A stretch of 64,000 bases of DNA from an uncultured Gammaproteobacteria bacterium (GCA_964602915.1 CAZRTB010000002.1:86301-150300); one strand, 5' to 3'; positions 36,744 to 62,165 are shown, numbered from the stretch's first letter. A program made the numbers and translations. The notes: generated by a model not told the origin, from the sequence alone.

Positions 36744-37701
36744 CAGTACTTTTAATCCAAGCCTTATTGTTTTTATACCACTCAATAGTGTTAATTAATG
36801 CATTGTCAAAACTATACTTTCTCTTCCACCCCAGTTCAGACTTAATTTTTGAGCAGTCCATTGCATATCTTTTGTCATGTCCAAGTCTATCAGTTACAAA
36901 TGAAATTAGTGACTCATCTTTCCCCATAATTTTCAACACTTTTTTAGTTAGATCTATGTTTGTGAGTTCGTATTCTCCGCCTACGTTATAGACCTCACCA
37001 ACAATACCTTTTTCTAAAATGAGAGAAATTGCTGAGCAGAAGTCAAGTACATAAATCCAGTCGCGTACATTTAAGCCATCACCATAAACAGGAAGCTTTT
37101 TGTTTTCCATAGCAAGTGAAATAAAATATGGAATTACTTTTTCTGGATATTGATATGGACCAAAATTATTTGAACATCTAACGATTATGCTGTTTAAACC
37201 ATAGGTTTTAAAATAGGCTCTTACCAGATGATCTGCTCCTGCTTTACTTGCAGAATAAGGGCTATTAGGTTTAATTTGACTTGTTTCAGTAAATTTATCA
37301 GGTGGTTCAATAGAGCCATAAACTTCATCAGTGCTAATTTGAATATATTTTTTTAAATTATTTTTTTTACTTACTTCTAGTAAAGTCTGTGTCCCGACAA
37401 TATTTGTTTCAATAAAAGGATCAACTTGTTTTATGCTTCTATCTACATGTGTTTCTGCAGCAAAATTTATAATAGCGTCAGGCTTATACTTTTTTATTAA
37501 ACCATCAATAAATTCATAATCCTGAATCTTCCCTTTAAAATACTGATAGTTCTTTTTTGATGAAATATCTTTTAAGTTTTCTGGATTGCCAGCATATGTT
37601 TCTGCATCAATGTTTGTTACGAATACATCAGTATTATTTAGTATCTCTCTAATAAAATTAGATCCTATAAAACCTAATCCACCAGTTACGAAGATATGCA
37701 T
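36730..37701 (-). CDS. rfbB: dTDP-glucose 4,6-dehydratase
   Basis: NAD-binding loop MHIFVTGGLGFIGSNF, the catalytic YSASKAGADHLVRAY (YxxxK) and the TDEVYG motif. Length is 323 aa. Confidence 0.9.
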   Translation of the reverse strand: MHIFVTGGLGFIGSNFIREILNNTDVFVTNIDAETYAGNPENLKDISSKKNYQYFKGKIQDYEFIDGLIKKYKPDAIINFAAETHVDRSIKQVDPFIETNIVGTQTLLEVSKKNNLKKYIQISTDEVYGSIEPPDKFTETSQIKPNSPYSASKAGADHLVRAYFKTYGLNSIIVRCSNNFGPYQYPEKVIPYFISLAMENKKLPVYGDGLNVRDWIYVLDFCSAISLILEKGIVGEVYNVGGEYELTNIDLTKKVLKIMGKDESLISFVTDRLGHDKRYAMDCSKIKSELGWKRKYSFDNALINTIEWYKNNKAWIKSTATPS

Positions 37702-38756
37702 TTTGTATAATCTCCTAGTATGAATTTACTCTTACCATTACCTTTTATGTCAATAATTGTATTTTCACCAATCAGACTGTCATAAATAATTTCTTTTAAA
37801 CACTTTATTTTTGAATTATTTCTAATAATTGATCTTTCAATTGTTGATGATTCTATCTGGTTATTCTTTCCAATACTTACGTGTGGTCCAATTTTTGAAT
37901 TTTTTATAATTGATCCATGTGAAATTATTACAGGTCCTGTAATTTCAGAATTCTCTATAATTACATCTTTATCAATCCATACCTTACCATTTATTTTTGA
38001 GGCTTTATCTATATTTGATTCTATTTTTTCATCTATAGAATTTAGTAGAAAATCGTTTGCAAGAAGCATGTTTTCAGGAGTACCAACATCATACCAATCA
38101 CTTAAAATCTTATGATACCCAACTATTTTCTTCTGACTAATTTGAAAGTCAACAGCGTCAGTAATTTCTAATTCGCCTCTGTAACTAGGTTTAATATTGG
38201 CAATTGCATAAAAAATTGAAGGTTTAAATAAGTAGATTCCTGATAAGCATAAATTTGATTTTGGGTCTTGTGGTTTTTCGATAAGCTTTAAAACGTTATC
38301 CCCATTAATTTCTGCTACTCCATATGGTCTTGGATCTTCAACTTCATTTAAAAAGACAAGAGTTTCGTAATTATTTTTTGTAAATTTATCAAGAGCATTT
38401 TTAACTTCATTCTTACCAATTAAAATATCACCTAAAAACATGATGAAAGGCTCATCACCTACTTGCATATTAGTTAACTGTACTGCATGTGCAAGTCCAA
38501 GCGGTTTATCTTGAAAAACAAAATCCATATCAAAATAATTCTTATATGTAGAATTTATTAAAGTCTCTTTAACTTGATGACCAAAGTCTTGACTTACAAC
38601 TACTATTACAGACTTGATACTTGTTTCTTCTTTAATTCTGTCTAAAATATGAAATAAAGTAGGTTTATTTGCTATTGGCAAAAGTTGTTTGGTTATTGTA
38701 CTTGTTAAAGGGAGCAGTCTTTGACCTGAGCCACCACTAAGTATTACAGCTTTCAT
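37686..38756 (-). CDS. rfbA: Glucose-1-phosphate thymidylyl/nucleotidyltransferase, long form with a C-terminal left-handed beta-helix
   Basis: MKAVILSGGSGQRLLPLTSTITKQLLPIANKPTLFHILD (sugar nucleotidyltransferase G-loop) plus C-terminal hexapeptide repeats. It overlaps the rfbB start by 16 nt, so the two are coupled. Confidence 0.8.
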   Translation of the reverse strand: MKAVILSGGSGQRLLPLTSTITKQLLPIANKPTLFHILDRIKEETSIKSVIVVVSQDFGHQVKETLINSTYKNYFDMDFVFQDKPLGLAHAVQLTNMQVGDEPFIMFLGDILIGKNEVKNALDKFTKNNYETLVFLNEVEDPRPYGVAEINGDNVLKLIEKPQDPKSNLCLSGIYLFKPSIFYAIANIKPSYRGELEITDAVDFQISQKKIVGYHKILSDWYDVGTPENMLLANDFLLNSIDEKIESNIDKASKINGKVWIDKDVIIENSEITGPVIISHGSIIKNSKIGPHVSIGKNNQIESSTIERSIIRNNSKIKCLKEIIYDSLIGENTIIDIKGNGKSKFILGDYTKCISS

Positions 38757-40604: not shown

Positions 40605-41693
40605 TTAACCCGATCTATAGTTTTGACAGCCAGTACATGCTAATGGCATTTTTTTGTAAAAGCCACCTCTAAAATCTACGAATTCTTCTGAATTCCAAAT
40701 CTGTTCAAATGGAGTTTCAAAGACATTTCCCATGTTTAAGATACTTGGATTGCTTATAGTACAGCAAGGAGTTACAAATCCTTCTGCTGTAATATTTGGG
40801 CTGAACCACGGCAATTTACATTGACCTAAGTTATTTGAGGATTTTCCAAAACTTTCAGTAATAATTTCAGTTTTAATTTCTTTTTTCCATACTTCAAGCT
40901 TTTCTGAAAAACTTTCTATTTCTTCTGGTTTTAATGAGGATTCACATAAAGATTTATCAGCGACTGAGCTCATAAATAGTTGAATATACAAAACATCAAT
41001 TCCGATTTCATTGGATTTACGAACTAGCTCTTCCATATAAGGTTCAGTTTCTTTCATTAGAATTGCTCTAAAAGATACTATAGGCTTACTTATTCCCAAC
41101 TCTTTTTTTATTTCAATAAATCTTTTAATATTTTCTGAAATTTTAGCTATAGATGCGCCGCTTCTGGTTTTAGCAAAGACTTCTTCATTGAAGCTATTTA
41201 CAGAAATTGATAAATTGCTTAAACCTGAAGAAATTAATTCTCTTGATTTTGTCTCTGTTAAAATAGTGCCATTTGTGTTTATATAGGTAGAAATTCCTTT
41301 TTCAGTACAGTATTCAATCATTTTCATTATGTCTTTGTTCAAAAGAGGTTCACCTACTCCTTGGAGAGTTACATATACTAGAGAAGGAATCTGATCAATC
41401 GTTTTTTTAAACTGTTCAAAATCTATATCATTTTTACTATATCCGTTATATGCCATATCTGTTCCTAGAGGACAGGTTGGGCATGTTAAATTACAGCGAT
41501 TTGTTACTTCAACAAATAAACATGGTGGTAAATAATTTACTCGACCGGGATGTTTTTCTTTTATTGCAGACACTGAAACATTTACTAGGTTAACTAAGCC
41601 TTTGTATCCCTGAAACTGGATAACTCTATTTAAGAGGTCAGATCCTACTTGTCTATCAACTTTTTCTTTTAAGTTTTTTAAATATGTAATCAT
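40605..41693 (-). CDS. Radical SAM protein with a C-terminal SPASM/twitch-like Cys cluster
   Basis: CxxxCxxC in VEVTNRCNLTCPTCP. C-terminal cysteines CKLPWFSPNITAEGFVTPCC and CTGCQNY suggest an auxiliary Fe-S domain. Confidence 0.65.
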   Translation of the reverse strand: MITYLKNLKEKVDRQVGSDLLNRVIQFQGYKGLVNLVNVSVSAIKEKHPGRVNYLPPCLFVEVTNRCNLTCPTCPLGTDMAYNGYSKNDIDFEQFKKTIDQIPSLVYVTLQGVGEPLLNKDIMKMIEYCTEKGISTYINTNGTILTETKSRELISSGLSNLSISVNSFNEEVFAKTRSGASIAKISENIKRFIEIKKELGISKPIVSFRAILMKETEPYMEELVRKSNEIGIDVLYIQLFMSSVADKSLCESSLKPEEIESFSEKLEVWKKEIKTEIITESFGKSSNNLGQCKLPWFSPNITAEGFVTPCCTISNPSILNMGNVFETPFEQIWNSEEFVDFRGGFYKKMPLACTGCQNYRSG

Positions 41694-41742: not shown

Positions 41743-42297
41743 ATGTTAGATGAATTTAATAAGGATTTTAAAAATGTATTTAATGGTAATCCGCTAACGG
41801 TATTACAGAGATACATTTTTTTAACTATATATGGAATATTTAAATATCTTCCAACACCAATCGGTGATATTTTGAGAGCTGTTTTTTTAAAGCTATTTTT
41901 GAAAAAAATAAATACAATTTGGATAAGAGAAGGTGTAACATTTCACTTTCCTGAAAATATTTCTATGGGAAAAAGTATGGTTGCTGAATTTGTTTATTTT
42001 AATGGATATGGTGGAATTGAAATTGGAGATAAAGTTTTAATAGGTGCAAATAGCATGTTCTTTTCTCATGATCATAATTTTAGTGATATTACAAAACCCA
42101 TATGGCATCAGGGGCTAACAAAAAAACCTATAGTTATAAAAGATAATGTTTATATAGGGTGTGGGGTAACTGTTTTAGGAAATGTAACTGTAAATAGTGG
42201 ATCAGTAATTGGTGCTGGTAGTGTAGTAATTGAAGATGTTCCTGAAAATTCTATAGTAGCTGGAATTCCTGCTAAAGTGATAGGAGAGAGATCTTAA
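41743..42297 (+). CDS. Hexapeptide-repeat (LbH) acetyltransferase, WbbJ/LacA/maltose O-acetyltransferase-like
   Basis: Hexapeptide repeats IGDKVLIGANSMFF and IGCGVTVLGNVTVNSGSVIGAGSVV, with the conserved SHDHNF region. Confidence 0.7.
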   Translation: MLDEFNKDFKNVFNGNPLTVLQRYIFLTIYGIFKYLPTPIGDILRAVFLKLFLKKINTIWIREGVTFHFPENISMGKSMVAEFVYFNGYGGIEIGDKVLIGANSMFFSHDHNFSDITKPIWHQGLTKKPIVIKDNVYIGCGVTVLGNVTVNSGSVIGAGSVVIEDVPENSIVAGIPAKVIGERS

Positions 42298-44618
42298 AAA
42301 TCTTTTTCTATGCTAATGTTTGAATTTATTAAACCATTTACGGACTGGATTTTACTTTCAAACTCGCTAATAATAATAGTTTGAGCTGTTATTAAATCTC
42401 TCTTTAGTTGTGGATATTTTTTCTGCAATTCTTTTAAATATATTAAGGCATCTTTCATGGAAGATTTTAAAACTATTTTTCTTGTTTTTAAATTGGCTAT
42501 TTCTACTGGTTCACCACTGTTATTAATAAGTACCCATGCAGTTTTTCTTTTGTAGTGGTTAAGAGTATTTTTAATGTTAGTAGTATGGTAAATCTTTACC
42601 CATGTATCCCCTAAACCTTTAGAATAAACAAGTCTAAAAATCTCCTTATTTTCAAGTAGGGACGAAATGTTAATTGGAATAAGGTTATTTGGAGATTCTT
42701 CAACAGCAACCCACTTTAAATTTAACTCATTTAGAAGGTGAGGATCAAAAGTTGAGAAGATTGTGAAAAATACACTATCATATTGTGAATATATCTGATC
42801 CTGATAAATAAATTTACCTGGAACAGATAGTGAATAAACTCCGGCATATAGAGGCAATGCAGGAATTGAACTAACAGAAAAGTCTCCAGGATTACTGTTT
42901 TCTTTTAAGTATTTAATAGTGTCAGCATATTTAATGGTAGGATTGTATTTAATCTGGTACAAGAAATCATTTAAAGACTTAGAGAAAAGCTTCATATCCT
43001 CTACACTTTTAATAATTCTAATATTCTTGAAAACGAATTTTGAAAAAACTTTATCACTGAAAAAATAAGGAGTGAAAAAGATATTGATAAATAGTTGTAA
43101 AATTGGTGAAGTACAGAATCCTATTAGTATTAGTGCAATAAAAATCTTTTTCTTAAATAAATTTCTATATTGCTCCCATAGTCCGATGATAATTAATATT
43201 ACTAGTATAGTATTTCCAAAGCCAAACATTCTATTGAAGTCAGTTGGATTAGTTTTAAAATTTATTATTAAAGGAGCTGGCATTGTGCAGATCGCACAAA
43301 GAAATAATAAAATACCAAATAGATTCTTTGATTTTATGATATATCTTATGGCAAAAGGTAAAAGTAATAAACTCAATCCAAACTCACATACAAAATCCCA
43401 GGATAGAATATTAATTTTTGAATATAGATTTAACTGATCATTAAATCTTCCCCACGTAGGTAAGAACAAATCTTTTTTCAATTCGATGTTAAATATATTT
43501 GCTCTACCTAAAGAATATAAGCCATCTTGTAAAAAAAATGGATTCCCAAAAGTTTTATTTAAAACTGAGCAAGTTAGGATAATTGCAAAGGTGTATTTAA
43601 GATTTTTCCAGTCTTTATTTTTGATAAATACAAATGAAAAAGGAATTACTCCTACCATGAAAGTTAAGTAAAGCCATTCAGCTGTTAAATATAATGAAAA
43701 AAGAGAAATTATAAGAGCTAAAATATAATATTTTTTATTTACTTCATTGCAATTAATCATTATCCAGAAAAGGATGAGTGAAAAAATTAAAAATGCAATC
43801 CCAGGTGCCCATGTGGAAACAAAAGTAAGAATGGATGGTGGGTTAATTACTGATCCATGTGCGCCAAAGTTGAAAAGAACTTCTATAAATCCTGAATTAA
43901 TAAAATCTTTTGGAAGTGCTTTAGTGAAAAATCTAAAAAAAGTATCTAACCACAACAATCCACCACTAAAATAAGTACAGAAAGCTGATAAGAGTGAAAT
44001 CTTATAACTCTTGCTTAAGGTCCAAGAGAGTAAGAAATATCCTAGAAAAATTGTGCCACTAAATAAAGCACAAATCAATTCATAACATCTGACAATTTCA
44101 ACTTTGCTAATCATATAAAATGCACCAGCTAGAATATCCCCTCCGTAGTGATATAGGACTGAATATGCAGGTCTGAAAAAATCTCTCGGAGGATATATAT
44201 CATTATGGAAAATGGTAAGAACAAGTGGCGTATGAAAATTCTTATCAATTACTCCGTATTTTTGAAGACATATAAGTGAGAGTAAATCTACACATAGAAA
44301 AATAAGAAGTAATACCACAAGCTTATTTTTTGAATATTCTATTTCCAATTCAAATTTTTCATTTTTTGTTTTAAAAATAACAAATATTACTGATACCAAT
44401 AAAACTAAAAATGAGATGTATGTGGACTTGATTGGTCCAAAAATAAAGGCTATAAGCTGAAATATAAATAAATAAGTACTTGTTCCTAAGGAAAATGAAA
44501 GAGCCAATAAATAAATTAATGATTTAATTTTAAAGAATTTATTTAATGTGATAAATCCAAAAGAGTATACTAATAATATTAATATTCCAAATATGATGTA
44601 AGGATTTAAAAAATTCAT
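42294..44618 (-). CDS. Large polytopic membrane protein of unknown family (putative glycan polymerase or transferase); paralog of 44695..47004
   Basis: 774 aa with about 12-14 TM helices over the N-terminal 480 aa and a soluble C-terminal domain. It shares a YHYGGDILAGAF motif and a C-terminal LNLKWVAVEE motif with the divergent neighbour. Confidence 0.4.
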   Translation of the reverse strand: MNFLNPYIIFGILILLVYSFGFITLNKFFKIKSLIYLLALSFSLGTSTYLFIFQLIAFIFGPIKSTYISFLVLLVSVIFVIFKTKNEKFELEIEYSKNKLVVLLLIFLCVDLLSLICLQKYGVIDKNFHTPLVLTIFHNDIYPPRDFFRPAYSVLYHYGGDILAGAFYMISKVEIVRCYELICALFSGTIFLGYFLLSWTLSKSYKISLLSAFCTYFSGGLLWLDTFFRFFTKALPKDFINSGFIEVLFNFGAHGSVINPPSILTFVSTWAPGIAFLIFSLILFWIMINCNEVNKKYYILALIISLFSLYLTAEWLYLTFMVGVIPFSFVFIKNKDWKNLKYTFAIILTCSVLNKTFGNPFFLQDGLYSLGRANIFNIELKKDLFLPTWGRFNDQLNLYSKINILSWDFVCEFGLSLLLLPFAIRYIIKSKNLFGILLFLCAICTMPAPLIINFKTNPTDFNRMFGFGNTILVILIIIGLWEQYRNLFKKKIFIALILIGFCTSPILQLFINIFFTPYFFSDKVFSKFVFKNIRIIKSVEDMKLFSKSLNDFLYQIKYNPTIKYADTIKYLKENSNPGDFSVSSIPALPLYAGVYSLSVPGKFIYQDQIYSQYDSVFFTIFSTFDPHLLNELNLKWVAVEESPNNLIPINISSLLENKEIFRLVYSKGLGDTWVKIYHTTNIKNTLNHYKRKTAWVLINNSGEPVEIANLKTRKIVLKSSMKDALIYLKELQKKYPQLKRDLITAQTIIISEFESKIQSVNGLINSNISIEKDF

Positions 44619-44694
44619 TAACTTTAAGTTTCTTTTTGAGAAGGATCTTTTTATTACGTAAGTTAAATCCTAATATATAAGTTACATTATTAAT

Positions 44695-47004
44695 ATGCTT
44701 ATTCTGAAATTATTTATATTTATTTCCATAATTTTTTCTTTAGGATTTGTTTTTCTTAAAAGAATACTTTTAATTAATTCTTTAGTTTATCTGGTGCCAT
44801 TTTCTTTTGTTATAGGAATGGCTTTTTTCCTGGATATAATATCGATATTTGCTTATTTCTTTGGTATTAGTAATGCAGTTATTCTTGCATTAATACTAAT
44901 GCTAATTTTTTCTCTATTAATTGTATATTTCAAGAAAACAACTTTATCTAAAGTTGATATTAACTTTACAAAAAATGAACTATCAATTTTAGGACTTTTC
45001 TTATTAATACTTTCTATTGTTACCATTTTTATCACAGATACGTGGCCAATCTCAGATTATGATTTTCACCTATCTAGCGTTAATCACTTTTTAAAGACAA
45101 ATAAATTTCCGAATGATTTCTCTAATTGGCCTCACTTATTTACGCCATACCATTATGGCTTTGATATTATTTGTGCAGGATTAGCTAGCTTCTTTAGAAT
45201 TGATGCTACAACAATATTTAAGTTCATAGTGAGTATTTCTTCGGTGACTACGTTCCTTTCAGCATTTGCTCTTTCTAAATTTATAATTGAGCGCTTCCCT
45301 AATCTTAAAAATAATTCCAATGATTTCTTTACAACTTTTAGTGGAGCTATATTCTTTTATTTTACTGGCAACTTCTTACTTACAGATTCAATCTTCAGGT
45401 ATTTATTTAAATTGTATCCTGTTCAAGAAGGATGGAGCTTTTTGAAAACGGTATTAAATCTAGGCTTTCATGGCGGAGTGTTTAATGATATCGCTAGTGG
45501 TGGGATTTTATTTCCTTCTTTTATATTTGGTATCCAGTTTTTTTTGGTATTTTTAGTGTTTTTATATAAGTTTATAAACAGTGATAAATTTAACTATTTT
45601 AAGTTTATTTTACTTTTTGTACTAGGAATAGCATTGATTCATACTGCAGAATCAATACTTTTTACTTTGCTTTGTTCACTTTTCTTAATGCCAATAGTAA
45701 CTGTTCTTATTTCAAGAAAAGAAAATCCTAAAAAAGTGGTTTTACGCTGTCTTATGTCTGCAGGTTTAATTTTACTAATAATATTTTTAAATTCCATTTC
45801 TTATAATTTTCTAAAATCAAACTATTATTATCTGCCAACTTTTCTAGAGCTGACATTAAACCCAAACTTTCCAATGATAGAGATCTTTGGAAGATTTGGA
45901 GATGTTAATAATCATATGAACATTTCAGTCTTTTCCTGGGACTATATTTCAGAATTGGGCATTCAATTTCTTCTATCAATTATTATTCTTTGGTGGGTTG
46001 TAAAGAACAACTCAAAGTTTTCAAGCCTTGCGATATCTATTTTTCTTATTGGTACTATCTCTTCAATGCTCCTATATATAAAAAGCTCTCCGCCAGATTC
46101 TTTAAGGCTACTTCATCCAGGAATTGAACTTCTAAACATGCTATTTTGTCTCTTTGCTTTATCTAATTTAAAGAATATATTTAAACCAATTTTTTTCTTC
46201 TTTTTTACATTTCAACCACTCTTAAAATTCCTACTTGCAGGAATCTTTACTTTAAGCATTTTTGTAAATTCCCAATACCCCGAAGTACTTAACTCTGTTA
46301 TTAGAGAGTCAGTAGCTAAAAATAACGTTGTATTATTTACTGAACAGCTTAAGAATCTAAAAAATATGGTGAGGAATTCATATGCATGTTCTGATGTCCA
46401 TAAAAATTTATCTAACTATTTGCTCAAGAATTATACTGGTATTGAATGTGGAATATCAATTAATCCAAAACCTTTTGATTTGGCAGGAATTCCCTGCTAT
46501 ATTTCTAGAACAGCTTCACTCCCAAAAAGACTTTCATTTTTTACTTTATTAAAGACCTTAGATCCGTTTATTTTAAAAGAATTGAATATAAAGTGGATTT
46601 ATATAGATAGTCAATCTCAGCAATATATAGATGAAAAAATTATTAATGAAATGATTAAATTTGGTTATTTAAAGTTAATAAAAACAGAGCATGATGAATT
46701 GTCAGATCAATATTCTTCTCTCTATGAGTTTGTAAATCTAGATGATTATATAAGTAAGTATGAAAGAAGGGTTTATTGGACCTATGTAAAATATATGAAT
46801 GATACGCTAATTGTCATTCCAGAAGGAAATGAAATACAGAGCGTTTATTTATTTAAAACTGAAAAAGAAGCTAATAACTTCTTGAAAGAAATTATCAAAA
46901 AGAATAAAAATCTTGATCTTTATAAACCATTTGTTAATGCTGTTGAAAAGGACTTAATTCTCGGGAAAGCACAGCAAAATGGATTTTTAGTTAAATATCT
47001 TTAA
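44695..47004 (+). CDS. Large polytopic membrane protein of unknown family; paralog of 42294..44618
   Basis: 769 aa with the same architecture. The motifs YHYGFDIICAGLASFF and LNIKWIYIDSQ match the neighbour. The two are divergently transcribed from a 76-bp intergenic region. Confidence 0.4.
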   Translation: MLILKLFIFISIIFSLGFVFLKRILLINSLVYLVPFSFVIGMAFFLDIISIFAYFFGISNAVILALILMLIFSLLIVYFKKTTLSKVDINFTKNELSILGLFLLILSIVTIFITDTWPISDYDFHLSSVNHFLKTNKFPNDFSNWPHLFTPYHYGFDIICAGLASFFRIDATTIFKFIVSISSVTTFLSAFALSKFIIERFPNLKNNSNDFFTTFSGAIFFYFTGNFLLTDSIFRYLFKLYPVQEGWSFLKTVLNLGFHGGVFNDIASGGILFPSFIFGIQFFLVFLVFLYKFINSDKFNYFKFILLFVLGIALIHTAESILFTLLCSLFLMPIVTVLISRKENPKKVVLRCLMSAGLILLIIFLNSISYNFLKSNYYYLPTFLELTLNPNFPMIEIFGRFGDVNNHMNISVFSWDYISELGIQFLLSIIILWWVVKNNSKFSSLAISIFLIGTISSMLLYIKSSPPDSLRLLHPGIELLNMLFCLFALSNLKNIFKPIFFFFFTFQPLLKFLLAGIFTLSIFVNSQYPEVLNSVIRESVAKNNVVLFTEQLKNLKNMVRNSYACSDVHKNLSNYLLKNYTGIECGISINPKPFDLAGIPCYISRTASLPKRLSFFTLLKTLDPFILKELNIKWIYIDSQSQQYIDEKIINEMIKFGYLKLIKTEHDELSDQYSSLYEFVNLDDYISKYERRVYWTYVKYMNDTLIVIPEGNEIQSVYLFKTEKEANNFLKEIIKKNKNLDLYKPFVNAVEKDLILGKAQQNGFLVKYL

Positions 47005-49181
47005 TTCTTTTTAATGGTTAAAAGCTTCTCTAATGCAGAGTCTATTTTTAACTTAAGATTTTCATTTGCATTACTTCCATTAGCTTTATCTTTTGCAAGG
47101 GTTAAATATTTTATTGCATTATCAAAATCATTATTTCTAATAAAAAAGCTTGATACTAAATATAGAGATAATGGATTTTCGCTATCTGTTCCAGTAATTT
47201 TTTTTACTACCAGTTCAGCACTTTTTAAATCATTTATAGTTAAGAATGCTACTAAAGCTTCTCTGTAAAAAAGACTATTATGTGTTCTCAAACCATTTAA
47301 ATATGAATATTTTGCATATTCTGAAAGATTACCTTCTGTTTGTGATGTTTTTAAGGCTTCAAGCAATATTTCTTTAGAGTAGGGGAAAAGTTTTAATCCT
47401 TCTAATAAATATTTTTTTGAGGTTGGCAGGTCTTTCTCTATATCTCTTTTTAACCTTATTAAAGATAGTATTGTAATTGGTAGCTTTGGATAATCATCAT
47501 ACATCTTGTGAAATATATCTCTAGCTTGGTTTAATTTATTATTTTTAATTAATAGATTTGCATAAAGTTCTAAAGCTAATGGATCCAGCTTTTTAATATG
47601 TTTAATGCTCGATTCATAGTTAGATAGATTGCTCTTTAAAAGATTTTGATCTGTTGATTCTAAATCAATTAATGATAAGTAATAAATTCCTTTAGAGATA
47701 AAAGAATCTTTATCTAGTCCATAAGAATAGATGATTCCAGGAGTGGGTTTATTATTCTCATCTTTTAATTTTGACAAGGCTTTATTGACATATGTTTTTG
47801 CAGTGTTTTTGTAGTTTTCATATTCTTCTTTTGAATTTGAACAGTTGACTGCTAAATCGTTGTATCTAAAGGCTTTAAGAAGAAGGTTATTTGAAGTTTT
47901 TATGCTCGATGTTATTAATGCGTAGTTGTTTGTCCAGTCAAGAGTTCTAATCATTGTTCTTGTGGAAAAACATATTAATAATATTAAAAGAGCAATTTTC
48001 TCTACTTTTTTATTTTTAACAGTTGAAGAAAATATAGAATATCCAAATACTAAGAAGAAAATAGGTGTATATAAATATCTTTCTGCAAAAAGACAATATG
48101 TCTGAGATAAAACTTGTGAAAAAGGAAGAATGCTGATTATAAAAAGAGACGATGTCGTGACAAGCCAGAATCTTGATTTGTTTTTTAGATATAAATAACA
48201 TGGAACTGTTATCCATGCAGTTATTGCTAAAATGCAAAAAATACTATACGTATCAAATAAGCTTTCTCCTAGTTTTACTAATGATGATTGATCTAGAGAT
48301 AAAGCTTTTGGAAAAAATGACAATTTTATAGCATGAAAAATTATTTGTGGCGATAACCATAAAATTCTTTCAACTATTAGTTTTATAGAGCTCTCACCAG
48401 TTTTTATAAACTCATATTTGGAGAGAGTAAAATAGGCTACAAACAATAAAAATCCAACTAAATAAGGACTGGTTTTTTTAATTGATTGAAGTAATGAGTC
48501 TCTAAGATTACTTTTTTTAAGCTCATTTAATATTGAAAAAGCAAATACTGTCAAAGGTAGCATGATGATATGTTCATTAAACATTAGGAATAAAATAAAA
48601 ATTGTTAGTATAGAAATACTTCTTTTTAATGAAAGATCATTACTTATATTTAGAATAAAGTCATAAAATAGATAAAAGAATGCTGTATAGCTTAGTGTTG
48701 CACTCATATTTGTGCTTAAAAGAATAGACTCCGCATGTACAGGATGACATGACCAGAGTAGCGTAAGTATTATTAATATCAAATTATCTTTTGTAAAAGA
48801 TTTTAATATTAAAAATACAAAGATTGTGTTGATCATATGCAAGATTAAATTAAATAAATGATATAAAAAAGCACTTTTACCAAAAAACAGTCCAGTTATT
48901 AAAAGAAATGGTGTTGAAAAAATGCTATTTCTTTTAATTGATACGACTGAAGAATATAAGTAATTTGATGAAGTTAAGTTATTCTCTATCCCAAAAGTTT
49001 TAACTATTTCAAAAACTTCTTCTAAGGAATGTGGAATCGGAATTAAGTCCTCATTATAAATTAATCTTTCATCATAGAAAATCCAGGGTCTGTTTAAGGT
49101 ATGAAGATAAATAAATAAGACTACAATTATGCATATTGTTATGCTTGCTAATGTTTTATTTTTAAAGATTAATTCTTTCAT
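47001..49181 (-). CDS. TPR-repeat-containing GT-C (PMT_2/TMTC-like) membrane glycosyltransferase, paralog 5 of 5
   Basis: N-terminal multi-TM domain with WIFYDERLIYNE (DE motif after TM1) and YHLFNLILHMINTIFVFLIL (the H..N...H hallmark), plus ERYLY and RTLDW motifs. The C-terminal half is TPR-like. Confidence 0.5.
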   Translation of the reverse strand: MKELIFKNKTLASITICIIVVLFIYLHTLNRPWIFYDERLIYNEDLIPIPHSLEEVFEIVKTFGIENNLTSSNYLYSSVVSIKRNSIFSTPFLLITGLFFGKSAFLYHLFNLILHMINTIFVFLILKSFTKDNLILIILTLLWSCHPVHAESILLSTNMSATLSYTAFFYLFYDFILNISNDLSLKRSISILTIFILFLMFNEHIIMLPLTVFAFSILNELKKSNLRDSLLQSIKKTSPYLVGFLLFVAYFTLSKYEFIKTGESSIKLIVERILWLSPQIIFHAIKLSFFPKALSLDQSSLVKLGESLFDTYSIFCILAITAWITVPCYLYLKNKSRFWLVTTSSLFIISILPFSQVLSQTYCLFAERYLYTPIFFLVFGYSIFSSTVKNKKVEKIALLILLICFSTRTMIRTLDWTNNYALITSSIKTSNNLLLKAFRYNDLAVNCSNSKEEYENYKNTAKTYVNKALSKLKDENNKPTPGIIYSYGLDKDSFISKGIYYLSLIDLESTDQNLLKSNLSNYESSIKHIKKLDPLALELYANLLIKNNKLNQARDIFHKMYDDYPKLPITILSLIRLKRDIEKDLPTSKKYLLEGLKLFPYSKEILLEALKTSQTEGNLSEYAKYSYLNGLRTHNSLFYREALVAFLTINDLKSAELVVKKITGTDSENPLSLYLVSSFFIRNNDFDNAIKYLTLAKDKANGSNANENLKLKIDSALEKLLTIKKN

Positions 49182-51505
49182 TAGTTTTCTAGCATTTTAT
49201 ATAAAGTATCAAGTAATGGAGAATATTTGGGATAACTGTTCGTAAGCTGAGCTAAGTCTTCAGTTAAAGAAGCGGCAATACGTTTGTCCCCACTAATAAT
49301 ATTTAGCTTAGCAAGATTAAATATAATCTCTACATATAAGTCTGGATTTATATTTATACTTTTGCTTATTTCGTAAGCTTTAGTTAGGACTTTTAAGCTT
49401 TTATTAGGATCGTTCTTTATATAAAAATATTTACTAAGTAAATAAAGTGTTTCTGGATCATTATTTCCATATTTTTCGAGCTTACTAGCTATGGAAACCA
49501 TTAAAGGAGAATTAAAATCTTTTAGTAGCATAAATATGGAAAATGCTTGGGTGTAATACTTTAAGGACTGAGTCCTTAATCCCAGTAGATAACTATATTT
49601 GCTAGCACTACTTAAATCATTATTTCTATAATAAAACTCCACACCCTTTTTTAGAATAGAAGGATCATATGGAAATTTTTCAAATTCTTTTTTCAGATAG
49701 TACTCTGCTTTTGTTAAATCTCTTAAATGTTCTGAATGAATTTCTATTAGTTTGTTTAATATTAAAGGATCATTGGGATATTGATCTAGCGATTTTTCAA
49801 GGATGCTTCTTGCTTCACCATATCTTTTTTCTTTAATTAAAAAATAAGAGTAAAGCTCTACAATACTTGGGCTGGCTTTTTCAATTTTATCTTTGAATGG
49901 AGATAAAATTTCTAGCCCTACCGTTACGGGCTCATTTAATTCTATACATTTTGACGATGCTAATAAGAAAGCAATTTTAAGTAAAAAAGAATCAGGGTCA
50001 ATGCCATAAGACGTTAATATTTTAATTTCTTTTGATGAAGCTTTTTTATTTTCAAAATCTTTTTTTGCGCTTTCTAGGAAATCGATAGCTTCGATAAAAT
50101 ATTTTTTTGATTCTTGAGTCTTTAATGGTTCAAATACTGGAATCATTTTTCCTAACATCCCGAGCTTTACAGCTTTGAAGAAATTATTATTTGTGTTTTT
50201 ATACGTCGAATTAATGAAAGAATAATTATCACTCCATTCACTTGTTCTAAGCTTTGATCTTGTAAAACAAATACTTAGAGCTAAAATCAATAAAATAAAA
50301 ACAAAGGATTTTATTTTATTCTTTGTTTTGTTTTTGATTAGTAGTGCTATGCCAAGCAATATAAATAGTAATGGAATATAAAGATACCTCTCTGCTGATA
50401 ATGTATAAGAGGGAAATAGAATATGTAAAAATGGAAAAAGAGAAATAAAAAATCCCCATGATAAAAATAGAGCCCACTCTTCTTTTTGCTTTAAAAAGTA
50501 GATCAATGGTATTGTCAGAAAACATAATAAAAACATTAAGCAAAAAATTGAATAAGGATCTAGTCTGGAGTCTCCGAGCTTAACAAATATAGTTTGATCG
50601 ATAGAAAGTGTGTACGGGTAAAAAACAAGTTTTAATAAATGGAAAAATATTTGTGGTGAAAGCCAAAATACTCTTTCAAGGATAATCTCTATATCTGGGT
50701 TTAATGTTTGTGAGGATTTAAATCCAGCTATGAAAAAAAAGTAAAATGAATAAATTAAAAAACCAATTATATATGGAACAGTCTCCTTTGTTGCATTTTT
50801 CATGCTTGAAGAAAATCCAGATTCTTTATAGCTTTGACTAAATGAAATCATGAAAAGTAAAAATGGTAGTGAGATTATATACTCATTTGTAAGCATGGGA
50901 ATTAAAAAAAGTATTGGTATTAAAATAATTCTTACTAAAGATAAATTTTGAGATCTATTTTTTAGAAAATCTAAAATAAATCCCAATAAAAACATGTAGC
51001 TGAATGTTGCACCTATATTTGTTGATAGGAGTATCGGCTCTATCATTACTGGATGAATAGCCCAGATTAAAGAAAATAATAAAGGCAAAAATTTTAATTT
51101 CTTATCGCGTAGAAAAAATTTAAAAATATAAAAAACAAAACAGGTGTTTATTACATGTAATAAGAAATTAAATAAATGATAGTAGAATGGATTGCCTTTA
51201 AAAAAACAGTTTATTGTCATCCATAAAATCTGACCAAATGGAGAAGTCCTAATTACTTGATTAGAGCTATACATAAGATTAGAAGAGACAATATTAAAAT
51301 TAAAACCTAAGTTCTTTATAATTTCAGGTATTTCAGATAATGAAAGCGGTACAGGAAAATATTTGTTCTCATAAATAATGTTTTCATCATAATAGAGCCA
51401 TGATCTTGATAGTGTTGGAATAAAAATTATAGAGAGCACTGTTAGACAAAATAATAATTCGTTATTTAATTTGTTTTTTATTACTGATTTTTTACTGCTA
51501 ATCAT
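49181..51505 (-). CDS. TPR-repeat-containing GT-C (PMT_2/TMTC-like) membrane glycosyltransferase, paralog 4 of 5
   Basis: WLYYDENIIYEN and YHLFNFLLHVINTCFVFYIF, with ERYLYIP and a C-terminal TPR-like region. Its stop overlaps the start of the downstream paralog (49181). Confidence 0.5.
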   Translation of the reverse strand: MISSKKSVIKNKLNNELLFCLTVLSIIFIPTLSRSWLYYDENIIYENKYFPVPLSLSEIPEIIKNLGFNFNIVSSNLMYSSNQVIRTSPFGQILWMTINCFFKGNPFYYHLFNFLLHVINTCFVFYIFKFFLRDKKLKFLPLLFSLIWAIHPVMIEPILLSTNIGATFSYMFLLGFILDFLKNRSQNLSLVRIILIPILFLIPMLTNEYIISLPFLLFMISFSQSYKESGFSSSMKNATKETVPYIIGFLIYSFYFFFIAGFKSSQTLNPDIEIILERVFWLSPQIFFHLLKLVFYPYTLSIDQTIFVKLGDSRLDPYSIFCLMFLLCFLTIPLIYFLKQKEEWALFLSWGFFISLFPFLHILFPSYTLSAERYLYIPLLFILLGIALLIKNKTKNKIKSFVFILLILALSICFTRSKLRTSEWSDNYSFINSTYKNTNNNFFKAVKLGMLGKMIPVFEPLKTQESKKYFIEAIDFLESAKKDFENKKASSKEIKILTSYGIDPDSFLLKIAFLLASSKCIELNEPVTVGLEILSPFKDKIEKASPSIVELYSYFLIKEKRYGEARSILEKSLDQYPNDPLILNKLIEIHSEHLRDLTKAEYYLKKEFEKFPYDPSILKKGVEFYYRNNDLSSASKYSYLLGLRTQSLKYYTQAFSIFMLLKDFNSPLMVSIASKLEKYGNNDPETLYLLSKYFYIKNDPNKSLKVLTKAYEISKSININPDLYVEIIFNLAKLNIISGDKRIAASLTEDLAQLTNSYPKYSPLLDTLYKMLEN

Positions 51506-51538
51506 TTTTTATTAAGTATAGTTGATCAAGTTTAACTT

Positions 51539-53458
51539 TTAAAGACCATTTGATCTTAGTTTGTATAACTCAACGAAGTGTTCATATTTTTTCATGTCAC
51601 CTTTTAAAAAATAAAAATCTCGCAAGTGGGTTATGACATCAATATTGTAAGGAAAATAATCAAAGGCTAGAGTTAAATATTTTTCTGCATGAGCAAAATC
51701 ATTTTTTAAAATGTATAATTCTGAGAGTGGAATTAAAATAAGAGGACTTATATTCTTTTCTCGTGCTTTTTCAAGAAAGGTTATAGCCTTATCGTTCATA
51801 TTTCCTATTTTTAATAGTTTGGTGTAAAAAGAGACAACAGTAGGATCATAAATAGGATTTCTGTCTAAATGTTCTGAAATTATTCTATATGCAAACCGGA
51901 CATCATTTTCCAATCCCATTCTAGAAAATGCAATTAGATATCCAGCTTTTGTTTGTTTAGTTGTAGGATCAAGCCCATAAAGCTTTAAAATCTCTGGAAT
52001 TGGTTTGCTTTTTTCTCCTTCTAAGCTTGAATAATAACTACTTAAAAGCTGAATTGAAGAATTTATTAGATTTAGTCCTCTTATTTGATTATTAATATTA
52101 GATCTGTCATCTAAAAGCAGGCTCCCGGTAAATTGCAATCTTAAAGCTTTTAATAAAACATCTGAGTTTGATATGTAGGCAGAATAAAAGAGTTTTTGAC
52201 TATTACTCCAGTCTAATGTTCTGAAATAGGTTCTTGTTGATAAAACTAATAGTAGGGTAAGCATAACAGAGAAAACAATTTTATCTTTTTTTAAATTTAA
52301 TATTAAATGTAAAATTCCCAGTATGAAAAATAAGCTGGGAAGATAAAGATATCTTTCGCTACACAAACAATACGTGGGTGAGATTGTTTGTAAAAATGGA
52401 GCTAAAGAAATTATAAAGGTAGATAATGGCAGTGAGATATTTAAAAATAAATCTTTTCGATTAAAAATACTAAAGACTATAAATCCAATTAAGCACATTG
52501 AAAATAAAATACAAAAAATTGCATAAATGTGAAAATAACTATCTGCAAAAAATACATTACCAGATTGGTCTATCGTTAATTTTAAGGGGAAAAATAATAG
52601 TTTTATGTAATGTATAAAAATTTGAGGTGAAATCCAAAAGACTCTTTCAATTACTAATCTGTAGTTTTGAAAATTGTTTGAAAAATTGTGTTTAGTTGGC
52701 GACAGTATGAAATAAATACAAAATAATATAATTGAAATAAACAATGGAGATACTTTTAAGAGCGCTTGTTTAATAGAGGTATTAAGATTGGTTTTATTCT
52801 TTAAATCCTCATATAGAACATATGAAAATAAAATAAAAGGTAATGTGACTGCATATTCACAGATGAATAACGTTATTGAAAACATTATAAACAGTACAAG
52901 AGGATTTCTGTTTTTTAAAAACAAATAAAAAACAACCATATATAAAAAATAGGTTAGAAGCGCCGCCCAATTTGTAGCAAAAACCACTGACTCTACATTT
53001 ACAGGATGTAAAGCCCACATCAGAGTTAAAGATGATGATATGAAAAGACCCTTTTTCTTATCAATTTCATATTTTTCAATAAAGCTATTTAAAAGTAAAA
53101 ATAAAATATAAGTATTTCCTGCGTGAAGTATAAGTGATAATAAATGGTAATTAAAAGGATCCTTTTTAAATAAATATTGAACAAATAAGGTTATTAAATT
53201 ATTTACAGGATCACATCTTAAGTTTGAAATGCTTGTGTAGAATGTGTTGCTAGCCTCGAAATAATTATTTATTCCAAATGTTTTAATGAAAGTAAAAATC
53301 CTGCTGAAATTATTCAGGATAGGTATAACAGCCTCATTGTAAATAAGTTGCTCATCAAAATTTCTCCATGGATATACCAATGTATGAAAGTAAAAAATAA
53401 AAACAATTAATGGTACTGCTATATAAAAGCTTTTTTCGTTTTTTAGAATATTTCTCAA
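51539..53458 (-). CDS. TPR-repeat-containing GT-C (PMT_2/TMTC-like) membrane glycosyltransferase, paralog 3 of 5
   Basis: WRNFDEQLIYNE, FEASNTFYTSISNLRCDP, YHLLSLILHAGNTYILFLLL, ERYLYLP and RTLDWSN, plus C-terminal TPR-like repeats. Confidence 0.5.
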   Translation of the reverse strand: MRNILKNEKSFYIAVPLIVFIFYFHTLVYPWRNFDEQLIYNEAVIPILNNFSRIFTFIKTFGINNYFEASNTFYTSISNLRCDPVNNLITLFVQYLFKKDPFNYHLLSLILHAGNTYILFLLLNSFIEKYEIDKKKGLFISSSLTLMWALHPVNVESVVFATNWAALLTYFLYMVVFYLFLKNRNPLVLFIMFSITLFICEYAVTLPFILFSYVLYEDLKNKTNLNTSIKQALLKVSPLFISIILFCIYFILSPTKHNFSNNFQNYRLVIERVFWISPQIFIHYIKLLFFPLKLTIDQSGNVFFADSYFHIYAIFCILFSMCLIGFIVFSIFNRKDLFLNISLPLSTFIISLAPFLQTISPTYCLCSERYLYLPSLFFILGILHLILNLKKDKIVFSVMLTLLLVLSTRTYFRTLDWSNSQKLFYSAYISNSDVLLKALRLQFTGSLLLDDRSNINNQIRGLNLINSSIQLLSSYYSSLEGEKSKPIPEILKLYGLDPTTKQTKAGYLIAFSRMGLENDVRFAYRIISEHLDRNPIYDPTVVSFYTKLLKIGNMNDKAITFLEKAREKNISPLILIPLSELYILKNDFAHAEKYLTLAFDYFPYNIDVITHLRDFYFLKGDMKKYEHFVELYKLRSNGL

Positions 53459-53460
53459 AT

Positions 53461-55503
53461 TTAACTACCACCAAATATCTTTTTATAAGCTAATTCTATT
53501 TCTTTTGTACTATCATCACTGGGATATTCGTATAAAAGTTTATGTAAAATTAAATCTGCTTTTGATTTATTTCTCATAATTATATAAACAATTCCTGCCT
53601 CTTGTAGGCTTTGAATATCATGGGTTCTAAGTCCATGAAGATATGAGAAATAAGCAAAACGCTCAGGCTGATTTTTAATTTTATATATTCTTACTAGTCC
53701 ATAGAGTGTTACAGAATCAAATGGAAACATTGAGAATGATTGTCGAAGATATTCCTCTGCTTTATTTAAATCTTTGTATTTGTATTCAGTAACATCTGCT
53801 AAAGAAAGGAATAATATTGGATTTAATTTTTTTTGATTTAAAGACTTGATTAAAACCTCTTCTGCTAAATCTATTCTCTTGGTTAAAAATAAAATAGGGT
53901 AATAAAAATTCAATATTAAGCTGTCAGTAACTCTTAGATTTCTTATCTGAGGAGTTAAAAACTCTTCAATTTTATAATTATCTTTATTTAAGCTACTTTC
54001 ACACAATGAAATCAAAAAAGCAGTTTTTGACTTTAAAGTTTTATTGTCTAATCCGTAATATTTAATTACAAGTGGGGCTGAATCGTTCTCATTTATTGAG
54101 CTAAAATAATTTTTAGTTTGCAGTAAAACTTTCTTAATTATTTCCTTTGCTTCTTCAGGGCTATCTTTTTTAATAGAGTCTGCAATCATTTTATGTCGCA
54201 AACTTCTTACAATAGGAGATCTGGTTGTTTCTATGCTTGATGAAAAAAGTGATTGAGTATCTTTCCAGTCTAGAGTTCTTATGTATGTTCTTGTTGAAAG
54301 AATAAGAGTTGTAATTATCAATAAAATTGAGGCAATCTTTAAATTGTTTCCTGAAATTATTCTGGATAAACTGAAAATAAGAAAAAATGTCGGTAGATAT
54401 AAATATCTTTCACTTCCTAAATTATAAATAGGAGAAATAATATGTGTGAATGGTAATAGTGCTATGAAAAATGGGATTATTAAATTTCCAATTGAGTTTA
54501 TTGTTTTATTCTTCGTGAAAAAAGAACATGCAGATATTACAAATAAAAGTATTGTTGAAAGTGTACAAAAAATACTGTATGGGGAAAATAGTGTCTTTGA
54601 AATGTGGATAACACTTGTTTGGTCAATGGATAAATTAATTGGGAAAAAGATTAAAGAAATATAATTAAATATTACTTGTGGAGAAAGCCAGAAAATCCTT
54701 TCAAATGTTAAAGGTAAGAAAGGGAAATCCTTATCATTAAAAGTTAGACTAATATTTGAAGATGTCTTTGATAAGAAGAAAACAATTAAAAATATTAACA
54801 GTGTAATGAAAAGAGGAATTGTTTTTTTGTATGAATTACTTGATTTAGTATATGTATAAAAAAGAACCATAAAGGGTAGTGTTACTGAGTACTCCACTGT
54901 AAAGCATGATATTAAAAGCAGTAAGCCTACGATGATTTGATCCATGAAACCTTCATTTTTATTAGTTAGTGATAAATAAAAGGTGAAAATATACATAGAG
55001 CAAGTGAGAACTCCTCCCCAGTTTGTAGAAAGTAGTATTGTTTCTGAATTAACAGGGTGTAATGCCCATAGAATTGGTAATATTACTGAAATAACCTCTT
55101 TGTATATATTGGAATTGTCATTAATATAAAATTTTCTTATTAGTAAAAAAAGAATTATAGAGTTGAATATATGTAGTGATAGTGAAAATAAATGATAGTA
55201 AAAAAAGTTCTTTTGAAATAAAAATTGAATACAAAGAGCTAATCCATTACATACAGGGTCACATCTTAAGTTTGAGATGCTTGAGTAAAATGGGTTACTT
55301 GCCTCAAAATAATTTCTAAATCCAAAATTACTTATAATTTCTAACAGTTCATTAAAATTCCTGGCTATAGGGAGTAATGTTTCATTGAAAATAAGTTCTT
55401 CGTCATAGAATTTCCATCCGTAATTAAGAGTATGAAAATAAAATATAAAAATAATTACAGAAATAACTATTGAGAGAGCTATACTTTTTTTATTTACCAT
55501 CAT
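53461..55503 (-). CDS. TPR-repeat-containing GT-C (PMT_2/TMTC-like) membrane glycosyltransferase, paralog 2 of 5
   Basis: WKFYDEELIFNE, FEASNPFYSSISNLRCDP, YHLFSLSLHIFNSIILFLLI, ERYLYLP and RTLDWKD. It is 2 nt from the upstream paralog. Confidence 0.5.
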   Translation of the reverse strand: MMVNKKSIALSIVISVIIFIFYFHTLNYGWKFYDEELIFNETLLPIARNFNELLEIISNFGFRNYFEASNPFYSSISNLRCDPVCNGLALCIQFLFQKNFFYYHLFSLSLHIFNSIILFLLIRKFYINDNSNIYKEVISVILPILWALHPVNSETILLSTNWGGVLTCSMYIFTFYLSLTNKNEGFMDQIIVGLLLLISCFTVEYSVTLPFMVLFYTYTKSSNSYKKTIPLFITLLIFLIVFFLSKTSSNISLTFNDKDFPFLPLTFERIFWLSPQVIFNYISLIFFPINLSIDQTSVIHISKTLFSPYSIFCTLSTILLFVISACSFFTKNKTINSIGNLIIPFFIALLPFTHIISPIYNLGSERYLYLPTFFLIFSLSRIISGNNLKIASILLIITTLILSTRTYIRTLDWKDTQSLFSSSIETTRSPIVRSLRHKMIADSIKKDSPEEAKEIIKKVLLQTKNYFSSINENDSAPLVIKYYGLDNKTLKSKTAFLISLCESSLNKDNYKIEEFLTPQIRNLRVTDSLILNFYYPILFLTKRIDLAEEVLIKSLNQKKLNPILFLSLADVTEYKYKDLNKAEEYLRQSFSMFPFDSVTLYGLVRIYKIKNQPERFAYFSYLHGLRTHDIQSLQEAGIVYIIMRNKSKADLILHKLLYEYPSDDSTKEIELAYKKIFGGS

Positions 55504-62060: not shown

Positions 62061-62165
62061 CAAAAAAATTATTATATTTAGACTATTAGTCGAAAAAAAT
62101 TAGATAAAAAAGTAAAAAGTTTCCAATAATTAGTTTTATCGAAGGAAAAGGTGGAGGAAAATAAA

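Follow-up and report, generated by a model that had tools for sequence, protein, structure and literature searches.

Glycosyltransferases of the GT-C_A class are built from a conserved module of seven transmembrane (TM) helices and a variable C-terminal module (PMC13503287, citing Alexander & Locher 2023). Their first luminal loop consists of two α-helices with a catalytic base, Asp or Glu, on the first one, and they use isoprenoid-phosphate-linked sugar donors, the phosphate of which is held by basic residues (PMC13503287; see also PMC11127046). A polyprenyl-phosphate-sugar synthase, a flippase and a GT-C enzyme constitute a three-component layout, examples being GtrA/GtrB/GtrC, ArnC/ArnEF/ArnT and GT136 of Citrobacter youngae; GT136 was recognised as a GT-C family from an AlphaFold model and its genomic context, and was then verified (PMC11127046). 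Here we analysed a divergently transcribed gene pair, termed A and B, in a stretch of 64,000 nucleotides from an uncultured Gammaproteobacteria bacterium (GCA_964602915.1, CAZRTB010000002.1:86301-150300; 'the window' denotes this entire stretch). A first-pass annotation, made from the sequence alone, had viewed A and B as membrane paralogs of an unrecognised family, possibly glycan polymerases, ligases or GT-C-like enzymes. Our best explanation, to which we assign a probability of roughly 0.7, is that A and B are anciently diverged, polyprenyl-phosphate-sugar-dependent periplasmic GT-C glycosyltransferases which form a branch at the periphery of DUF2298, most of it without annotation.

The fold of A and B is shared with the GT-C_A structures of ArnT (5F15/5EZM), PglB (3RCE/5OGL), STT3A (8PN9), CeDPY19 (7ZLI) and AftA (8IF8), to which Foldseek assigned a probability of 1.00 and E values of 6e-6 to 1e-2. 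According to the models, A and B resemble these enzymes in being polytopic and in having a two-helix loop with an invariant Asp on the predicted periplasmic side, conserved basic residues which face outwards and a C-terminal domain which is periplasmic as well. Unlike in these enzymes, the putative loop follows TM4 and not TM1, which implies three extra N-terminal helices, and the signature motifs are D-x3-H plus YHYG instead of DE, DxD or WWDYG. With the three-component systems the locus shares a GT2 resembling polyprenyl-phosphate-sugar synthases, a flippase-like protein and GT-C proteins. It differs from them in that the flippase candidate is of the TIGR00374 family, not GtrA, SMR or MATE, and that the GT2 gene is situated about 16 kb away beside other GT-C genes. 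Instead of one GT-C gene there are nine from three families in this locus, i.e. A/B, a tandem array T1-T5 (the T-array) and the pair G1/G2. T1-T5 and G1/G2 resemble PMT_2/PMT/TMTC-like O-mannosyltransferases. They have the superfamily fold and the locus in common with A/B and probably the pathway. In contrast to them, A and B carry neither a DE after TM1 nor tetratricopeptide repeats (TPR).

Structure and conserved residues of the A/B pair

The listing of open reading frames (ORFs) bore out the divergent arrangement of two genes separated by a short spacer which the first-pass annotation had described (coordinates of all features are given in Table 1). BLASTP aligned A and B from end to end over about 765 positions at 23% identity (E=9e-46). 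This is far beyond chance; A and B are true full-length paralogs. DSSP assignments of the AlphaFold models, which were built on family alignments, gave each protein 14 membrane-length helices within the first 515 residues or so; the remainder, 260 amino acids (aa) in A and 252 in B, is a mixed α/β domain. Earlier, 12-14 TM helices and a soluble domain of about 280 aa had been estimated. Of the motifs said to be shared, YHYG.DI (beginning at residue 156 in A and 152 in B) and LN[LI]KW (residues 632 and 630) occur in both proteins, whereas a trailing '.AG' of the former is exact in A only; B reads YHYGFDIICAG, longer by one residue. Invariant columns in the C-terminal domain of A are G593, W636 within LNLKW, and W695. 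This domain had no significant match to any solved structure, neither by sequence nor by fold. At its 3'-end A overlaps convergently by 4 bp with a hexapeptide acetyltransferase gene, and B does so by 4 bp with the nearest TPR/GT-C gene of the T-array. Therefore, in this genome A and B are each single-gene units which start from the common spacer.

The AlphaFold models were of high confidence, with a pLDDT of 90.6 and a pTM of 0.91 for A, and 89.1 and 0.90 for B. All Foldseek matches in the PDB at E<=1e-3 were GT-C enzymes (7/7 for A, 11/11 for B). For A, the best matches were CeDPY19 (E=5.8e-6), STT3A, ArnT and PglB with E values from 6e-6 to 3e-4; AftD and Pmt1/2 followed just below. The best 14 matches of B were all GT-Cs, among them PglB (E=6.3e-5), STT3A/B, DPY19, AftA and ArnT. 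Thus, both models are polytopic integral membrane proteins with the GT-C fold, as in class GT-C_A. The GT-C-like part of the initial proposal was borne out by this comparison; polymerase and ligase folds were not among the significant matches. Nor was there any transporter or sensor family to which A and B were clearly homologous. Transporter folds were retrieved with Foldseek probabilities of at most 0.1, and a transporter or sensor reading was rejected.

Conservation was examined in 125 sequences, including distant relatives from a wider halo of the family (see below). In the numbering of A, the values were 91% for D125, 74% for H129, 99% for P143, 97% for Y156, 100% for H157, 88% for Y158, 90% for E314 and 94% for R463. 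All 23 A/B-type proteins retain D125, H129, Y156, H157 and R463. The equivalents in B are D121, H125, Y152, H153, E318 and R471. Every conserved residue is retained in B, and the possibility that B is a pseudo-enzyme was rejected. For the topology, the helices of the models were taken as TM segments and positive charges were counted in alternate loops according to the positive-inside rule. The density of Lys plus Arg was 0.25 (A) and 0.21 (B) in the predicted cytoplasmic loops versus 0.084 (A) and 0.045 (B) in the periplasmic ones, i.e. an excess of 3 to 4.6 times. The predicted topology is N-out with 14 TM helices. This count puts all of the conserved polar residues on the periplasmic side, and with them the C-terminal domain.

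Long outer loops follow TM4 and TM10, where LL1 and LL4 of a GT-C_A enzyme would fall. The loop of A after TM4, residues 122-174, contains helices from 126-139 and 159-171. D125 directly precedes the first helix and H129 is inside of it. In the models this loop is a putative equivalent of LL1/EL1 of GT-C_A enzymes, and the same assignment is putative for B. The 14 TM helices are compatible with three extra, seven conserved and four variable helices by counting, not by superposition. The first-pass annotation had rightly emphasised that A and B lack the DE signature which the PMT_2 genes carry after TM1. Judging from the models, this would not mean that a catalytic acid is missing; the invariant Asp in the loop, D125 in A and D121 in B, is a putative candidate.

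Family relationships and history of the pair

A matched the Pfam family PF10060 (DUF2298, 'uncharacterized membrane protein') with 35.2 bits, above the gathering score of 27.8 (E=9.1e-9). The alignment covered positions 6-198 of 488 in the profile only and thus fell short of the full model. B matched no model in Pfam or NCBIfam, and the NCBIfam scan yielded nothing for A either. The label of an unrecognised family therefore fits B, and the function of the family is uncharacterised; it does not fit A, which passes the DUF2298 gathering score. A word-indexed search recovered 45 relatives of A but only 7 of B; those with names were from metagenome-assembled genomes (MAGs) of Candidatus Melainabacteria. 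DUF2298 was matched by 26 of 46 relatives (E<=0.01). Among 185,579 species-representative genomes, the clade of about 770 aa was found at 10 loci, each of them in a groundwater MAG of Melainabacteria or Caenarcanales and always with the same gene surroundings.

HMMER, run exhaustively with a joint A/B profile, retrieved 664 cluster representatives at E<=1e-3, 64 of them at E<=1e-30 (clusters were formed at 50% identity). About a dozen of the 664 were full-length clusters of about 770 aa. The remainder is a halo of proteins of 640-820 aa, including Anaerolineae proteins and a Patescibacteria protein named 'DUF2298 domain-containing' by NCBI. The A/B profile aligned with a profile of 113 halo proteins over 704 columns, C-terminal domain included, with a probability of 100% and E=1.8e-79. 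The Pfam status of the halo was assessed in a sample of 10 out of these 113 proteins: 2 matched DUF2298, both below threshold, and 8 were undetected. One halo member aligned, below threshold, to profile positions 6-449 of 488. From the partial or absent DUF2298 matches and the profile match with the halo, A and B emerge as one branch of a sizeable family which is located at the edge of DUF2298 and largely outside of it. In terms of sequence, A and B are thus peripheral relatives and not core members of DUF2298.

Since no function is assigned to DUF2298 itself, little is explained by membership in it. The accessible literature contains two passing mentions only and nothing on function; one of these comes from a Chloroflexi genome in which PMT2 genes accompany a DUF2298 gene. 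We take DUF2298 to correspond to TIGR03662, the 'Chlor_Arch_YYY' membrane proteins, and to belong to the GT-C clan of Pfam; the family-wide YHYG looks like the YYYxG motif which presumably is the signature of TIGR03662. Sequence searches of the PDB with two profiles brought up no relative, only noise (YdhR, E 0.11; a designed protein, E 0.16). Neither PMT nor PMT_2 of Pfam was matched by A or B. Profile comparisons by hhalign gave probabilities of 0.5% with the T family and 0.07% with the G family, both of which have an invariant D37-E38. This ruled out that A and B are diverged PMT_2 genes, as the first-pass annotation had argued in treating them as a different family.

The A-type clade comprised 17 sequences with a mean identity of 46%, the B-type clade 6 sequences with identities of 37-50%. 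Between the types, identity was 22-24%, i.e. these are two deep clades. B-type genes occupy the same divergent position in the related loci L001, L004, L007, L008, L015 and L016. Initially, the head-to-head orientation had been attributed to an inverted duplication which might have left scars in the DNA. A recent event of this kind is ruled out by the deep clades, by the B-type orthologues elsewhere and by the absence of scars: a repeat search of 42000-47300 returned only short AT-rich matches of 70-90% identity, none of which was mirror-symmetric across the spacer. At a protein identity of 23% such scars are not to be expected. By sequence comparison the head-to-head pair is an old, inherited arrangement.

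In related loci the family has 1 to 3 copies. Several relatives have a third paralog, which is of the A-type and is placed in tandem between A and B; the window is without this copy. It consistently carries D225N, H254Y/Q and E314G, all at periplasmic positions, and retains D125, H157 and R463. Positions 225, 254 and 314 may be determinants of donor or acceptor specificity. A promoter scan of the 76-bp spacer was uninformative (4 sites versus 4.2 expected in shuffled controls), and TTGACA is not present in it. In the spacers of three relatives a conserved promoter of the sigma-70 type, TTGACA-N16/17-(c/g)ATAAT, faces the B-type gene.

Genomic context, proposed function and alternatives

The glycan context supposed in the first-pass annotation is real, and it is conserved. 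The gene order T-array, (B), A in one or two copies, (acetyltransferase), radical SAM/SPASM gene, flippase-like gene, T-like gene, methyltransferase, RmlA, RmlB recurs in more than 10 loci of Melainabacteria, the non-photosynthetic sister lineage of cyanobacteria. This is every related locus with enough flanking sequence. In all related loci the T-array, in variable copy number, adjoins A/B, and the radical SAM/SPASM and TIGR00374 genes are beside A. Among distant homologues, 4 of 6 sampled are situated in glycan clusters. In L022 and L021 a GtrA-family gene immediately precedes the homologue and GT2 genes are beside it, which is the classical three-component layout. In L017, a Patescibacteria contig, it is among radical SAM/SPASM, B12-dependent radical SAM, methyltransferase, GT4 and Wzx genes, a setting reminiscent of the locus in Melainabacteria, and L023 has a similar glycan cluster of the radical SAM/methyltransferase/GT4/Wzx type. 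In L017, L022 and L021 taken together, radical SAM/SPASM, B12-dependent radical SAM and several methyltransferase genes recur besides GtrA, GT2 and Wzx; it seems that the A/B family is paired with radical-SAM sugar-modifying enzymes outside of Melainabacteria, too. The synteny in Melainabacteria together with the GtrA/GT2 context supports a periplasmic glycosyltransferase which uses a lipid-monophosphate sugar donor.

On the other side of the T-array two secreted proteins rich in Ser, Thr, Ala and Gly are encoded divergently to it. Both have signal peptides and no Pfam domain. The larger one of 1337 aa contains 26% Ser+Thr and 24% Ala+Gly, the smaller one of 474 aa contains 34% Ser+Thr. Because of the composition of these two proteins the GC content jumps here from about 0.27 to 0.40-0.42. 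The 1337-aa protein has 44 homologues with 50-70% identity; the named ones are from Melainabacteria MAGs. In L025 and L026 its homologue is beside the T-array and is followed by DegT (PglE-like) and Polysacc_synt_2 (PglF-like) genes. The 1337-aa protein resembles a major protein of the surface or S-layer type and is a plausible glycosylation target of the locus; both secreted proteins are candidate acceptors.

The following pathway would be in line with these data. A cytoplasmic GT2 would load a sugar onto polyprenyl phosphate. A flippase, here the TIGR00374/LPG_synthase_TM protein and in distant relatives GtrA, would carry this lipid-linked sugar across the cytoplasmic membrane to its outer face, and A and B would each pass it on to a periplasmic acceptor. 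In this reaction the invariant Asp at the start of the two-helix loop (D125 in A, D121 in B) would be the catalytic base, His157/Tyr156 and Arg463 would hold the donor phosphate, and the unique periplasmic C-terminal domain of about 255 aa would bind the acceptor. Most likely A, B and the third lineage of relatives would differ in sugar, linkage or acceptor position. Alongside T1-T5 and G1/G2 they would build a complex surface glycan which contains 6-deoxyhexose, is probably methylated, acetylated or carbamoylated and may be attached to the neighbouring secreted proteins rich in Ser and Thr.

Several points weigh against this assignment. The TM-scores to GT-C enzymes are modest, 0.31-0.52, with a large root mean square deviation (rmsd). 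As far as the models tell, the likeness to characterised GT-Cs is at the level of the fold only, and neither sequences nor profiles linked A and B to PDB entries or to the PMT_2-like neighbours. The GT2 gene is, besides its distance from A/B, located directly before G1/G2 and its product scores below the NCBIfam cut-offs; it may serve G1/G2 rather than A/B. The candidate role of the TIGR00374 protein as a flippase is taken from its family annotation. About half of the related loci lack a B-type gene (A is alone in L009, L010, L012, L013 and L014), i.e. B is dispensable for the core pathway. Lastly, literature searches found no activity shown for any member of the A/B family or of DUF2298.

Foremost among the alternatives, and improbable in our judgement, is that A and/or B are oligosaccharyltransferases (OSTs) of the PglB/STT3/AglB type, which transfer glycans en bloc from polyprenyl-diphosphate onto the Ser/Thr-rich proteins. 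PglB and STT3 are the best three Foldseek matches of B and among the best of A, and the order D...D...E...R of conserved residues in A and B resembles D56/D154/E319/R375, which we take to be the corresponding residues in PglB. A conserved secreted Ser/Thr-rich protein is beside the cluster, with PglE-like and PglF-like genes after it in relatives. However, ArnT, DPY19 and AftA, all of which use monophosphate donors, score equally well. WWDYG, the motif of the OST family GT66 in CAZy, was found in none of the 23 A/B-type proteins, nor was WWD or WxDYG; there is only an SW[DE] tripeptide in the loop before TM11. Similarity in sequence to any OST in the PDB was absent, and the distant homologues pair with GtrA and GT2, a hallmark of three-component systems with monophosphate sugars.

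Heteromeric GT-C pairs are known, and A and B might be an obligate heterodimer with one joint function, like Pmt1-Pmt2 or EmbA-EmbB. Both genes are expressed divergently from one 76-bp spacer, the Pmt1-Pmt2 complex is among the Foldseek matches of A, and the full set of conserved residues is present in A as well as in B, which is in keeping with such a pair. Yet A occurs alone in about half of the related loci and the copy number varies from 1 to 3. We therefore consider an obligate heterodimer to be quite unlikely.

A further alternative is that A and B polymerise or ligate repeat units linked to undecaprenyl-diphosphate, as Wzy-, WaaL- or SEDS-type enzymes do. In its favour, A and B are large polytopic proteins in a polysaccharide locus, Wzx-type flippases are beside distant homologues and no obvious Wzy or WaaL gene is among the annotated ORFs of the window. 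This identity is very unlikely since Wzy, WaaL, RodA and FtsW are missing from the significant fold matches (FtsW had E=2.7 and a probability of 0.09 with B), Pfam reports DUF2298 and not Wzy_C or an O-antigen ligase, and a two-helix loop with an invariant Asp ahead of a large periplasmic domain at the C-terminus is what GT-Cs look like. That A and B are GT-C-fold proteins without enzymatic activity, or transporters or sensors apart from glycan metabolism, would agree with the modest TM-scores and with the lack of biochemical data for the family in our literature searches, but is hardly credible as a set of polar periplasmic residues is strictly conserved across 664 cluster representatives, which argues for catalysis, transporter folds have probabilities <=0.1, and all close homologues as well as 4 of 6 sampled distant ones are in glycan clusters.

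As probable polyprenyl-phosphate-sugar-dependent glycosyltransferases, A and B are new within the known GT-C superfamily; in concept they are ordinary, and B is invisible to current models. A testable function would be gained for DUF2298 and for the larger halo which sequence libraries miss, i.e. for a family of 664 clusters spanning Melainabacteria, Patescibacteria and Chloroflexi. The prediction singles out D125, H157 and R463, the lineage-specific positions 225, 254 and 314, and a compact set of genes. It leaves existing concepts intact, as three-component systems with GT-C enzymes are well established. More interesting than A and B alone is the whole locus, nine GT-Cs beside a conserved Ser/Thr-rich surface protein. 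It would be a surface-glycosylation locus very rich in GT-Cs, with a concrete candidate acceptor, in a lineage known from MAGs only. A farther-reaching and decidedly tentative proposal is that the A/B family with its halo of about 660 clusters is a functionally new GT-C family, and potentially a new CAZy family, distinguished by three additional TM helices at the N-terminus, a catalytic loop with D-x3-H...YHYG and a C-terminal domain of a novel kind which binds the acceptor. It might work in Melainabacteria with the two PMT-like families, i.e. at least nine GT-Cs, as a periplasmic assembly line comparable in complexity to the mycobacterial arabinan pathway or the ALG pathway in the lumen of the endoplasmic reticulum, and might decorate the conserved 1337-aa S-layer-like protein with radical-SAM-modified, methylated 6-deoxyhexose glycans. 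We consider this doubtful as a whole.

Composition of the locus

Table 1. Positions of the A/B genes, of their parts and of neighbouring features in the window, and of two kinds of feature in related loci (locus names given).
Feature	Coordinates	Strand	Remarks
Paralog A	42294-44618	minus	774 aa, ATG start; ORF listing
Paralog B	44695-47004	plus	769 aa, ATG start; ORF listing
Intergenic region A/B	44619-44694	none	76 bp, AT-rich, divergent; presumed site of A and B promoters
A, putative catalytic loop, codons 122-174	44097-44255	minus	D125, H129, P143, P150, Y156-H157-Y158-G159-x-D161; columns invariant or nearly so
B, equivalent loop, codons 117-170	45043-45204	plus	D121, H125, Y152-H153-Y154-G155-x-D157
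A, C-terminal domain, codons 515-774	42297-43076	minus	α/β, soluble, predicted periplasmic; model DSSP, topology, invariant columns
GT2, then PMT_2-like G1 and G2	25719-29905	plus	candidate source of lipid-monophosphate sugar donors
RmlB (dTDP-glucose 4,6-dehydratase) and long-form RmlA (glucose-1-phosphate thymidylyltransferase)	36730-38756	minus	6-deoxyhexose precursor supply
Flippase-like membrane protein, LPG_synthase_TM/TIGR00374	39611-40603	minus	two genes from A
Radical SAM/SPASM protein	40605-41693	minus	always adjoins A-type genes; 74-84% identity across genomes
WcaF-like hexapeptide O-acetyltransferase	41743-42297	plus	convergent with A; in a subset of related loci
T1-T5, PMT-like GT-C paralogs with C-terminal TPR	47001-57581	minus	five tandem genes
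Two secreted Ser/Thr/Ala/Gly-rich proteins	58000-62013 and 62151-63575	plus	1337 aa and 474 aa
Third-paralog copies, related loci	L001 7599-9932; L004 7630-9939; L008 7674-; L015 7699-		
Promoter-bearing spacers of relatives	L001 9933-10000; L004 9940-10000; L008 7621-7673		

According to the annotation of its ORFs, the window contains one large glycan locus from 20-58 kb. It starts with AsnB and two radical-SAM enzymes, one of which is B12-dependent. The best NCBIfam matches of the GT2 were dolichyl-phosphate-hexose (Dol-P-hexose) transferase, AglJ, ArnC and PpgS, all of them below the curated cut-offs. G1/G2 are followed by a methyltransferase, a GT4, a NodU-like carbamoyltransferase and a protein of 948 aa. 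RmlB and RmlA exceeded their NCBIfam cut-offs (463.4 versus 365.1, and 336.7 versus 320.25), and a second methyltransferase gene is placed between them and the TIGR00374 gene. The TIGR00374 protein scored 125.9 bits in Pfam and 84 bits in NCBIfam against a cut-off of 43.2; these annotations make it a candidate for flipping the lipid-linked donor. T1-T5 have 639-774 aa and are 31-36% identical to each other; D37-E38 is invariant after TM1, and Pfam barely detects their membrane part.

Some minor observations were made. The 948-aa protein (33897-36743, plus strand) has no Pfam or NCBIfam match; homologues with 40-56% identity are encoded in the same locus of L007, L010, L012 and L013. A GTG-start ORF of 121 aa runs antisense within A (43072-43437, plus strand) and is almost certainly a spurious frame in AT-rich DNA. 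A small C-terminal sub-domain of B, encoded at about 46.7-47.0 kb, was matched by Foldseek to Tic22 (4E6Z) and also to Tic22-like chains in Ycf2/Orf2971-FtsHi complexes. The match comprised about 85 columns with an rmsd of 3-4 Å and a probability of 1.00, but E was 0.3-0.5. To judge from the model, this sub-domain may be a chaperone-like or substrate-binding fold.

Positions 1-20500 of the window carry housekeeping genes: a GHL10-like glycoside hydrolase, ThrRS, a sigma-70 factor, an IMPDH-like protein, a PP2C phosphatase, tRNA-Val, phosphoribosyl pyrophosphate (PRPP) synthetase, GyrB and RecF. Two flanking ORFs, 13942-14619 and 18671-20464, had no Pfam match. The housekeeping flank indicates that the glycan locus is chromosomal and not on an obvious mobile element.

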